A stretch of 64,000 nt of DNA from Candidatus Heimdallarchaeota archaeon. Its GTDB lineage: Archaea; Asgardarchaeota; Heimdallarchaeia; Hodarchaeales; Hodarchaeaceae. Positions within the stretch are counted from its first letter, which is position 1; every line of letters starts with the position of its first letter. The DNA is taken from contig RDOB01000004.1 in NCBI GenBank assembly GCA_011364965.1, positions 116,360 through 180,359 of the forward strand, in the 5' to 3' direction. The notes under the pieces are model-generated. The model was not told the origin of the DNA. It was given only the letters and a program-made list of their open reading frames with translations, and searched no databases. This document shows positions 59,426 through 62,571 of the stretch, in pieces. The position numbers and the translations under genes were made by a program.

Positions 59426-61270
59426 ATGAGTTCTTTATCGGCTTCAAATGACATTCTTGTTATTCATCAAAACAGAATCATCTTTAGCTCTGGTAGTGGG
59501 GCGTTAACACAACATAGCAAAATTAGTGCAACAGTAACCCAAGTTTTAAATCTTTTTTCCCAGAAAATCATGAAAGGAGAACAAATACACTTTATAAGGT
59601 TTGAAAATCATCGCATGATATTCTTATTCTCCCCTGCAAGGAAAGAAGAATTAGTAGCAATTGTTTTAATCCCAATAGATCGAAGCGCAAGGCAAATTTT
59701 ACCTACAATGAGCATGATTTTAGGATTATTAGAAGAATTTCTCCAGGGTAATATTCTAGACGCACAAAATCGTCATTTAGATTGCTTTCACCAAATCTTG
59801 TCAACTCATGAAGATTCTTTATACATCATCCCTCGAACAGCAGATGGAATATTAGCAGCGTTAGTACTACTAACGGCTTTCGCTCATGATATGCAGCTTG
59901 GAATCCAAAAAGTTGTTTCTAATATAAGATTTATAAACCCACAGAAACCTCAAGAAATCAGTAATATACTGCATCAAGCAGAAAATAAAAGGATTCTATC
60001 TTTTATCGATATTCCAGAAGCAGAGACGAGAGAGAATATTCTTGTATTCGGTATTGAATCTCCACTAAGGCAATATTTCTCTGCATTGCCAGGCGAACGT
60101 ATTTATGATGCATTAGGTAGGATATTTGGTGAGAAATCTAATGCTGCTAAGATGAGATCATTTATTGCTAATGAAGATGCCCAAGAAATAGCACAATCAA
60201 TATCATTATTTCCTGAATCAGAAGATGGGTTTATTAGAAAAGAGATTCTACTGAATACTGTATTACAACCAGGGAAAGATATAATTGTCTCGATATCTAC
60301 TCCTGTTATGCAAAAGTTACGAGAATTGTCGTCAACAACACGAGAAACATCACGCGTTAAACATAAATTTCCAAAAGATGTTCCTGTTGATGACCTTGAT
60401 GCTCTCACGGAACACCTTATAGAGGAGGAAATAGCTGAAGTAAAACCAATTGTTCAGGACCTAGGAGTAAAAAATGCTCAAGCATTATCAGCAGAGCCCG
60501 ATGCAATTCCTTCTGCTATACAAATAGAACCAATTACCACTATTCCATCTCGAAAAGTTACCAAAGAAACAATGGTTCAATTGGAGAAAGCGAAAAAGGG
60601 AGGACATGAATATAGATTCAATTCTATCCCCATATTATTAGATACATCTCCATTTGCTTTAAATATAACAGAAACGGATAGCTTACCTTATGATCCCTCA
60701 AAAATGACAATTCGTGTTTTTAATAATCAGAATAGACAATTTTGTATCCATATCTTGACTTCTTCAGATAGACTTCCACCTTTGAAAGAATCAATGGAGG
60801 ATTTGTCTATGAGATTAGGGGGAGAAACTCAGTTGCACAAAGATCATATCTCGATTCAAGGTCCTGTTGAAAAGCAATCTAATGCGATTAAAGCCCTTCT
60901 TTGGCTTTTAATTGTAGAATATTTAACACAAGTAGAATTAAATAAATTTCCATTATCGAAACGTTTCGAGATTCCTAGAGAGGGTTCTATTTTAATAATT
61001 CCACCTAAACGTGACTTTGTTCGTGAAAAAATACCATCTAAATTTAAAACCTTTGTAGTAGAGGAAGAAGTAAGGAGGAAGATTGAACAAGAAGCATTAT
61101 GGACATTAGGACAATCTCAAGATACCTTAATCTCCAAATTAATGGAACCATTAAAACATGGTGAAGGAGTTGTTTTCATTGCGTCAGATAGGAACCAAGA
61201 AATGGAAGAAATTGCTCTATTCCTTCTTTTAGTCTCTGAAACTTGTGGTATTGGATTTTCTAGATGGTAG
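59426..61270 (+). CDS. N-terminal longin-like domain protein with DENN-like alpha/beta segments
   Basis: beta-beta-alpha-beta-beta-beta-alpha pattern (ILVIH/RIIF, VTQVLNLFSQKIM, IHFIRFENHRMIF, LVAIVLIP), followed by helix-strand-helix units. Confidence 0.55.
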   Translation: MSSLSASNDILVIHQNRIIFSSGSGALTQHSKISATVTQVLNLFSQKIMKGEQIHFIRFENHRMIFLFSPARKEELVAIVLIPIDRSARQILPTMSMILGLLEEFLQGNILDAQNRHLDCFHQILSTHEDSLYIIPRTADGILAALVLLTAFAHDMQLGIQKVVSNIRFINPQKPQEISNILHQAENKRILSFIDIPEAETRENILVFGIESPLRQYFSALPGERIYDALGRIFGEKSNAAKMRSFIANEDAQEIAQSISLFPESEDGFIRKEILLNTVLQPGKDIIVSISTPVMQKLRELSSTTRETSRVKHKFPKDVPVDDLDALTEHLIEEEIAEVKPIVQDLGVKNAQALSAEPDAIPSAIQIEPITTIPSRKVTKETMVQLEKAKKGGHEYRFNSIPILLDTSPFALNITETDSLPYDPSKMTIRVFNNQNRQFCIHILTSSDRLPPLKESMEDLSMRLGGETQLHKDHISIQGPVEKQSNAIKALLWLLIVEYLTQVELNKFPLSKRFEIPREGSILIIPPKRDFVREKIPSKFKTFVVEEEVRRKIEQEALWTLGQSQDTLISKLMEPLKHGEGVVFIASDRNQEMEEIALFLLLVSETCGIGFSRW

Positions 61271-61301
61271 AGACAAGGCTAAAAGAATTTCTTACTAAAG
61301 A

Positions 61302-61372
61302 CTGCTATTGTATCGATCGGCTGAGGCCTCCCGTTGCGATGATGCATGTATCGTCCGGAATAGCAGATAAGC
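61302..61372 (+). ncRNA. Putative single-hairpin box H/ACA pseudouridylation guide RNA (SSU rRNA 790-loop target)
   Basis: 8-bp lower stem, GUAUC/GUCCGG pocket, upper stem, K-turn/K-loop (CUGA + GAU-GAUG), and an AUA box 14 nt from the pocket apex. About 54% GC in AT-rich intergenic DNA. Confidence 0.7.
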
Positions 61373-61704
61373 TTTCAGCTGGGATCTTTTTGGAAATTCT
61401 AGTCAAATTGTCTTGCCAACTAGAAAAATTAAATGATAATACCTATACAAGCATATTTGAGTAAATCCAAGGATGATTCTAGTTTTATTAATTAAAAACA
61501 AAAATTTATGAACCATTTAGAATGGAAAGAGTTTGGGAAACGTAAAAAAGTGATCAATTAGAACTAATATTTATAACTTAGATTAGGTTGAATTGGTTAA
61601 AATAATATTAACTGAGTCCATAAAACAAAGATAGTGTATACTTCAAACTAAAAAATTAAATAAATTTCATTGAAATCAAATCTACACTCATAGGGTTTAT
61701 TCAA

Positions 61705-62571
61705 ATGATAAGGACAATTCGCAAATTTTCTAAAAAAACACGAGGAATTTCTCCCGTGATAGCCACAGTTCTTTTAATAGGATTAGCTGTCGTAGCAGGT
61801 ATTGCAGTCGCCTTAGTGGTTTTTGGTACATTGAATACTCCCACACCATTAAGAATTGAGATAATATCCATATCTGATTTTAAAACAACTGATGATGACA
61901 CCTTAATCGATCAATTTTCTGTAACATTACATAATACAGAACGTACAAATGGTCTGATTTTAACAGATTCTTTCAAACTATTTTTCCAGAATCTAACTGA
62001 GCAATTAGGTTGGGAAATGAATCTTTCAAATACACAAATAATTCTTCCTGCCTTGGAAATTCAAACTATTCCATTGTATTGTAATCCTAATGAAGATCAA
62101 AACGAATTAACACCTAAAAATGATACCCTTTATATTGAAGTAACCGTCTATCCGGAGAGCAGTACGAATCCAAGAAACGCTAAGAAATTCCGATCAGATT
62201 TACTAATAATGGGAGACACTTATGGACCCGTGTCCATTCAAGCTACCGCCCAAAATGCATTATTTGATGATTTGGGGAATAATATTTCTATAACAGCCAC
62301 AAATCTAGGCAGTATGGAACTAGATCTGTATTTAGAGTTTTCTACTACAGATTCTCAGGATATTTTCTTTGCAATAGGGGGAGAAAATAAAACACGATTC
62401 GATTTCTCAATTGGTAGTTATGGGGAAGTTATTATGCCAAATTTAACCTCATTATATCCTACAGAACACGCTGTAGCTGACCAGAGTTTCATAATATTAA
62501 TTACATTATGGGATCAGAATAATTTTCGCCTTTTAGCTTCTAGAAGCTTACTATTAACCTATACAGGTTAA
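61705..62571 (+). CDS. Archaeal type IV pilin-like protein
   Basis: Class III signal peptide KKTRG|ISPVIATVLLIGLAVVAG; beta-rich body. Confidence 0.88.
   Translation: MIRTIRKFSKKTRGISPVIATVLLIGLAVVAGIAVALVVFGTLNTPTPLRIEIISISDFKTTDDDTLIDQFSVTLHNTERTNGLILTDSFKLFFQNLTEQLGWEMNLSNTQIILPALEIQTIPLYCNPNEDQNELTPKNDTLYIEVTVYPESSTNPRNAKKFRSDLLIMGDTYGPVSIQATAQNALFDDLGNNISITATNLGSMELDLYLEFSTTDSQDIFFAIGGENKTRFDFSIGSYGEVIMPNLTSLYPTEHAVADQSFIILITLWDQNNFRLLASRSLLLTYTG

Follow-up and report, generated by a model that had tools for sequence, protein, structure and literature searches.

What is encoded by the GC-rich stretch that lies just beyond the stop codon of a 614-codon gene in this Heimdallarchaeota genome? 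The window, the whole stretch of DNA that was analyzed, comprises 64,000 nt of contig RDOB01000004.1 from Candidatus Heimdallarchaeota archaeon, a member of the Hodarchaeales, and a first-pass annotation based on its letters had read positions 61302 to 61372 as an unannotated box H/ACA guide RNA aimed at the 790 loop of the small-subunit rRNA. Comparison with related genomes supports this interpretation. We consider it likely that positions 61277-61404 of the plus strand encode a small noncoding RNA, the core of which, 61302-61369, would be a single-hairpin H/ACA-type guide for pseudouridylation of the 16S 790 loop.

At the level of the DNA, the motifs on which that reading was built are located, base for base, where it had placed them. 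These include GTATC at 61310-14, GTCCGG at 61353-58, GAT at 61315-17 facing ATC at 61350-52, CTGA at 61321-24, GATGATG at 61338-44, and ATA at 61367-69, exactly 14 nt (61353-61366) below the upper stem, with CTGCTATT (61302-09) base-paired to AATAGCAG (61359-66). The tally of 35 G or C among 65 bases is likewise reproduced when 61302-61366 is recounted, in a genome of 34.8% GC, and a local GC peak of 0.50, compared to about 0.3 on either side, makes the hairpin a GC island that starts 31 nt 3' of the TAG stop of the 614-codon gene. A permissive Rfam scan of 60800-62000 on both strands returned no relevant match, and no better fold was found on the minus strand. In single-sequence folding, the energy does not stand out from that of shuffles (z = -0.17 for 61295-61380 and -0.95 for the whole element), so the case for a structured RNA rests on comparison between species. 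Two other readings of the sequence were rejected on comparison. The minimum free energy fold of the window sequence, with its 7-bp GAUGAUG/UAUCGUC stem, is not kept in relatives, and an open reading frame of 66 codons at 61264-61464 has its frame broken by one- and two-base indels between species. Table 1 lists the features of the element.

Table 1. Conserved element downstream of the 614-codon gene, in window positions; 16S positions follow E. coli numbering.
Feature	Position	Strand	Basis
Whole conserved structured element, ~128 nt	61277-61404	+	RNAalifold consensus (21 sequences), pair counts, synteny
Outer helix, 5' strand: GGCU 61277-80, 3-nt bulge AAA 61281-83, AGA 61284-86, internal loop, 61293-61300	61277-61300	+	
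Lower stem (H1), 5' strand CUGCUAUU	61302-61309	+	8 pairs; A-U for U-A in 5 species; G-U variants
5' guide strand GUAUC, candidate pairing with 16S G791-C795	61310-61314	+	Target scan
Upper stem (H2), 5' strand: GAU + CGGC (relatives GGU + CAGC)	61315-61321	+	Compensatory A-U/G-C and G-C/A-U changes
Candidate kink-turn and apical part	61322-61343	+	Alignment; C-stem from RNAalifold
Kink-turn pieces, 5' side and loop: N 61322, GA 61323-24, G, C-stem GC 61326-27/GC 61336-37, loop with invariant CCCG			
Kink-turn pieces, 3' side: 3-nt bulge GAU 61338-40, GA 61341-42, N 61343			
Upper stem (H2), 3' strand with internal bulge: GCAU-GU-AUC (most relatives GCUG-AUU-ACC)	61344-61352	+	Alignment
3' guide strand GUCCGG, candidate pairing with 16S C783-U788	61353-61358	+	Invariant 21/21; target match
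Lower stem (H1), 3' strand AAUAGCAG	61359-61366	+	Sequence and pair counts
ANA box, AUA in window sequence	61367-61369	+	14 nt from upper-stem base
Mini-hairpin AGCU-UUC-AGCU directly 3' of box	61370-61380	+	3 conserved pairs
Outer helix, 3' strand: 61386-61393, UCU 61398-61400, AGUC 61401-61404	61386-61404	+	

Of the genus's 21 other species genomes, 17 gave a BLAST match to the stretch, at 76 to 84% identity. A covariance-model search, which the first-pass annotation had proposed as a check, found the locus conserved and recovered a single copy from each of 20 of these 21 genomes, giving 21 sequences with the window's own. In the sole member of the genus that has no hairpin, the end of a contig falls at this very point, immediately past the upstream gene. 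Models of the whole element (R1) and of the hairpin only (R2) had no match in 62 other genomes of the class, found nothing beyond the genus in a phylum-wide set of 150 genomes (including 6 from the genus itself), and had no match in 5 hand-picked genomes at E values up to 5. The apical motif has a single occurrence in the genome, so paralogues are absent, and a scan of the 208 noncoding GC islands of the genome, using a descriptor that may be too narrow, did not yield another H/ACA hairpin that was convincing.

Under the proposed structure, pairing extends to 97.1% of the cells of the 21-sequence alignment (A2), against 23 to 54% in slid controls. Compensatory changes on both sides occur in 15 of the 35 pairs, a result equaled by none of 500 column shuffles. 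Covariation in both stems of the hairpin upholds the hairpin-pocket-hairpin fold: a U-A pair of the lower stem is swapped to A-U in five species, G-U variants also occur in that stem, and each of the two upper-stem segments has G-C pairs replaced by A-U. The most constant part is the unpaired pocket. The 3' guide, GUCCGG, is invariant in all 21 sequences, and the 5' guide reads GUAUC in 16, AUAUC in 4, and AAAUC in 1, with changes confined to its outer one or two bases; bulge and loop vary while these guide strands stay near-constant. The box is A-N-A throughout (AAA in 18, AUA in 2, AGA in 1; ACA was never seen), and the 14-nt spacing that separates it from the pocket still sums to 14 in those species whose lower stem has its top pair open. 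Both GA dinucleotides of the candidate kink-turn are invariant throughout the 21 sequences, whereas the N positions beside them are free to vary, and a 3-nt bulge, G/A-A-U, directly precedes the 3' GA across the alignment.

A longer conserved structure, 61277-61404, which the first-pass annotation overlooked, surrounds the hairpin. This conserved unit of about 128 nt is a three-way junction with the H/ACA-like hairpin as its main arm. Between the box and the outer helix stands a mini-hairpin of 3 to 4 bp (61370-80), the fourth pair of which is A-U, C-G, G-C, or U-A in 5 sequences and unpaired in 10. RNAalifold placed the outer helix in both alignments, with pairings of 61277-80 to 61401-04, 61284-86 to 61398-61400, and 61293-61300 to 61386-93 (A2 columns 33-36/162-165, 40-42/159-161, and 49-56/147-154, respectively). 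Changes on both sides are found in 10 of its 15 pairs, and AGA/UCU in the window, in place of the GGA/UCC of relatives, is itself a compensatory change. A bulge-helix-bulge splicing motif was considered for this helix and rejected, as there is one 3-nt bulge and no second bulge 4 bp away.

The element begins 6 nt past the TAG stop (61268-70) of the upstream gene (59426-61270), and a start a few bases 3' of the stop of this same gene is constant across relatives. The 614-aa product has no Pfam match and a conserved C-terminal end, GIGFSRW. The gene is confined to the order, where it occurs in the genus and in a sister family, and was not found in the rest of the class; the RNA element is always present after it. 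We speculate that the outer helix probably serves to define or protect the termini of an RNA that would be produced either out of the upstream mRNA or immediately after it.

Homologues of the upstream gene are present in two genomes of the neighboring family (G022 and G023), and right after their stop codons lie GC-rich hairpins (L102:2098-2165 and L103:2216-2278, respectively). Like the window RNA, these hairpins occupy the same place after the homologous gene and have an 8-bp lower stem and a candidate kink-turn, here of the form GA-GC...GC-NAU-GA. Unlike it, they have a 6-bp upper stem, a canonical ACA box 14 to 15 nt from the pocket, and a different pocket, with UAUCCA as the 3' guide in both. 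The ACA hairpins of the sister family thus support the assignment of the window RNA to the H/ACA class. For their own guides, no target site with at least 9 contiguous pairs in the canonical UN register was found, the rRNAs of these two genomes being absent from their assemblies, and for G023 the leading candidate is a match of the UNN type within the peptidyl-transferase region of 23S rRNA. The comparison suggests that one locus kept its scaffold while the guide changed.

Relatives of a neighboring protein belong to MAGs with the labels Hodarchaeota, Heimdallarchaeota, or Promethearchaeota, which places the window in a Hodarchaeales-type Asgard archaeon. The assembly that contains it (2.97 Mb in 16 contigs, 87% complete) has no 16S gene of its own, so the target was checked in congeners; the 16S genes of three of them (G001, G002, and G016) carry GAGCCGGAUUAGAUACCCGGG. 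The 16S of one congener and one 23S (G001:C57) were scanned for sites in which U-N is flanked by a stretch pairing with the 3' guide on its 5' side and a stretch pairing with the 5' guide on its 3' side. The best rRNA site was the one put forward in the first-pass annotation, the 790 loop, where CCGGAU-UA-GAUAC offers 11 of 11 pairs (6 + 5, one of them G-U) to GUCCGG and GUAUC and leaves UA free. The second-best site had 8 pairs, and shuffled pockets reached the observed score in 3 of 2,000 cases. The 23S used in the shuffle test is the sole full-length one in the genus set. It shares about 64% identity with the 23S pieces typical of the genus and probably represents contamination of the G001 MAG; it is still usable as null sequence. 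In the genus-typical 5' half of 23S, matches of 9 to 10 pairs occur in single species and are not conserved. The scans covered the genus's own 23S short of domains V-VI, where a better 23S target could lie.

The 790 loop, which we take to be numbered A790, G791, A794, and C795 as in E. coli, offers two candidate uridines. In the canonical register U789 and A790 are unpaired, which predicts pseudouridine at U789, and the sum of the lower stem (8) and the 3' duplex (6) is 14, within the 14- to 15-nt rule for the distance to the box (PMC2377435). U788 as the target would need the UNN register and a distance of 13, which was inactive in Pyrococcus. For this reason we favor U789, which is probably the modified base, and hold U788 to be a serious but lesser candidate.

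Several side observations concern the rRNA genes themselves. One species (L025, G008:C9) has an intron of ~750 nt inside the 790 loop of 16S (about 16S position 733-1484), with the junction GGAUUAGAU / intron / ACCCGGG, that encodes a LAGLIDADG-type protein (36 bits). The intron splits the sequence that pairs with the 5' strand of the guide, so full guide pairing would be possible only after splicing, and the G008 genome still has the guide. In two genomes from another family of the class (L021 and L022, from G028 and G038), 16S at about 722-740 reads GGAUUAGAGACCC, with G replacing the near-universal U at E. coli position 793. Stand-alone stretches of ~310 nt that match the 3' end of archaeal 23S only (model positions 2721-2973) were seen at G000:C12:515019-515329 and in G001, G002, and G008, one or two per genome and apart from the rest of the 23S, and genus-typical 23S scores in several separate pieces. 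The 23S of the genus may be fragmented or intron-rich.

One alternative to a guide RNA is that the structure acts in cis, as a kink-turn element in the 3' untranslated region of the upstream gene, e.g., an L7Ae-bound stability or termination structure, and that the complementarity to 16S is incidental. Archaea do have regulatory kink-turns bound by L7Ae, and such a role would fit an element that always lies a few bases past the stop of the same gene, with no evident room for a separate promoter and with a long outer helix enclosing the hairpin. We nonetheless regard this explanation as unlikely. It does not account for the invariant single-stranded bases of the pocket, for an A-N-A box at exactly 14 nt, for a bipartite match of 11 of 11 with a free U-N, or for a hairpin with an ACA box at the same place in the sister family.

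Seen as an H/ACA guide, the RNA can be measured against the rules of its class. The fold of lower stem, pocket, and upper stem, the ANA box, the 14-nt distance, and the bipartite U-N target match all agree with those rules, as do pocket strands of 5 and 6 nt, given the class range of 5 to 11 nt per strand. The orientation of the GA/GA pairs is what we take to be usual in archaeal H/ACA RNAs, and the 3-nt R-A-U bulge is on the strand where, presumably, that of Pf9 also lies. AUA, AAA, and AGA are known variants of the ACA box (PMC7991803). In the conserved fold the ANA box is not close to a free 3' end, as it lies in the three-way junction and is followed by the mini-hairpin and outer helix. 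In published archaeal guides, the upper stem measures 5 to 6 bp and contains no more than one bulged base; versions with 7 bp were inactive in Pyrococcus (PMC2377435, PMC7991803). The upper stem of the window RNA consists of 3 bp, a bulge of 1 to 3 nt, 4 bp, and N.N, followed by the G.A pairs (7 bp in total), and its kink-turn is accordingly outside the class limits for the distance from the pocket, 5 to 6 bp and no more than one bulged base. The C-stem is irregular as well, with either 2 bp and an extra unpaired G in the nonbulged strand or a single G-C pair. Because the upper stem breaks the 5- to 6-bp rule and the C-stem is irregular, we class this RNA as a variant rather than a textbook example, one that most likely functions in the manner of an H/ACA guide.

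Eukaryotes have nonmodifying H/ACA RNPs, such as snR30/U17, and with these precedents an H/ACA-type RNP might pair with the 790 loop of pre-16S without modifying it, either as a folding or processing chaperone or as a guide disabled by its over-long upper stem. An upper stem outside the active range of 5 to 6 bp (PMC2377435) would be in keeping with this. The pocket geometry, however, is that of a modifying guide, with U-N free and 14 nt to the box, and no extra rRNA-complementary motifs of the snR30 kind were seen. The conserved bulge in the upper stem could also compensate for the extra length, and we think a nonmodifying particle quite improbable. That the element is a conserved structured RNA of some other class, with a coincidental resemblance to H/ACA RNAs, is very unlikely indeed, for although it has no Rfam match and an invariant C-rich apical loop, CCCG, that falls outside the H/ACA model, the box, the kink-turn bases, the correct spacing, and a statistically unusual target match are all present. 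The apical loop (61328-61335) reads CCCG(U) in all 21 species, an invariance that the H/ACA model leaves unexplained, and the sister-family hairpins have CCGG there.

Among the protein partners of H/ACA guides, searches of the window's genome detected Cbf5 (420 bits), Nop10 (43 bits), and two proteins of the L7Ae family (91 and 54 bits), with Cbf5, Nop10, and L7Ae above cutoff. The genome thus encodes Cbf5, Nop10, Gar1, and L7Ae, with Gar1 represented only by a weak Gar1-like match (20.7 bits, below cutoff). What was observed is a conserved fold with its box and kink-turn bases, a matching target sequence in the 16S of congeners, and these protein genes; from them we infer transcription, RNP assembly, catalysis, and the choice of the modified uridine along the following lines. 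Cbf5, Nop10, and Gar1 would take hold of the ANA box and of the lower stem with its 8 bp, whereas L7Ae would dock on the kink-turn in the upper stem. GUCCGG would pair with 5'-CCGGAU-3' of 16S (E. coli 783-788) and GUAUC with 5'-GAUAC-3' (791-795). U789 and A790 would be left unpaired at the top of the pocket, and U789, in the 790 loop of helix 24, would be isomerized to pseudouridine. In the alternative UNN register, the active site would instead hold U788, the position corresponding to yeast Psi999, human Psi1056, and Sulfolobus islandicus Psi747.

Pyrococcus Pab91 and Pab160/Pf9, along with sR115 and sR435 of S. islandicus, belong to the classic archaeal box H/ACA sRNAs with a single hairpin. 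The window RNA shares with them a lower stem, a bipartite pocket, an upper stem in which tandem sheared G.A pairs are predicted, a 3-nt bulge, an ANA box at a distance of 14 nt from the pocket, and a target in rRNA, for the window RNA a predicted one, that leaves U-N unpaired (PMC2377435, PMC11077068). It departs from them in an upper stem of 7 bp plus a bulge of 1 to 3 nt, where the classic guides have 5 to 6 bp; in the box, which in its genus is AAA, AUA, or AGA and never ACA; and in the long outer helix that encloses the hairpin and the mini-hairpin that follows the box. Sequence similarity to the classic guides is undetectable, in that there is no Rfam match.

The target loop, a universally conserved part of the small-subunit rRNA, is already known as a modified one, and the archaeal counterpart of yeast Psi999 is already published. 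It is Psi747 of S. islandicus 16S, guided by the atypical sR563, and deletion of sR563 slows growth (PMC11077068). Both sR563 and the window RNA are directed, the latter by prediction, at the same helix 24 loop of 16S, but sR563 is without a lower stem and ACA box, whereas the window RNA has a lower stem and an ANA box. The canonical prediction for the window RNA is also E. coli position 789, whereas the site of sR563 is the neighboring 788 equivalent. In yeast, Psi999 (snR31) lies in helix 24, 3 nt from the IF3 site, and is conserved as human Psi1056 and Arabidopsis Psi1000 (PMC2794176), an account that fits the equation of Psi999 with E. coli U788 in the first-pass annotation. Yeast snR31 and the guide for human Psi1056 each direct a pseudouridine to this loop, which is close to the E/P site (PMC2794176), and the window RNA is predicted to do likewise. 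Unlike the window RNA, the eukaryotic helix 24 guides have two hairpins and no kink-turn. In eukaryotic rRNA, as in the yeast 18S sequence, the residue corresponding to 789 is C, which leaves the 788 equivalent as the one modifiable position. No description of Asgard archaeal H/ACA guide RNAs was found in the literature searched.

A bolder proposal concerns the origin of eukaryotic guides. According to this proposal, which we hold to be doubtful, an H/ACA guide in the archaeal order nearest eukaryotes rides in the tail of a protein-gene transcript and is freed via a long flanking helix, a host-gene arrangement like that of eukaryotic snoRNAs. The stretched and bulged upper stem would then be a loosened L7Ae ruler, en route to the kink-turn-free guides of eukaryotes, and the pseudouridine would fall at or next to the helix 24 site that eukaryotes conserve.

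As an H/ACA-type guide, the RNA is an incremental addition to a well-understood class, and its upper stem and outer helix make it a modestly interesting variant. For a Hodarchaeales-type lineage it supplies a specific guide-target pair that is open to testing; yeast, human, Arabidopsis, and Sulfolobus all have pseudouridine in the P/E-site ribosomal loop that is its predicted target. The RNA also probes how strict the rule of 5 to 6 bp to the kink-turn may be, and the comparison with the sister family suggests that one locus can retain its scaffold yet change its pocket.
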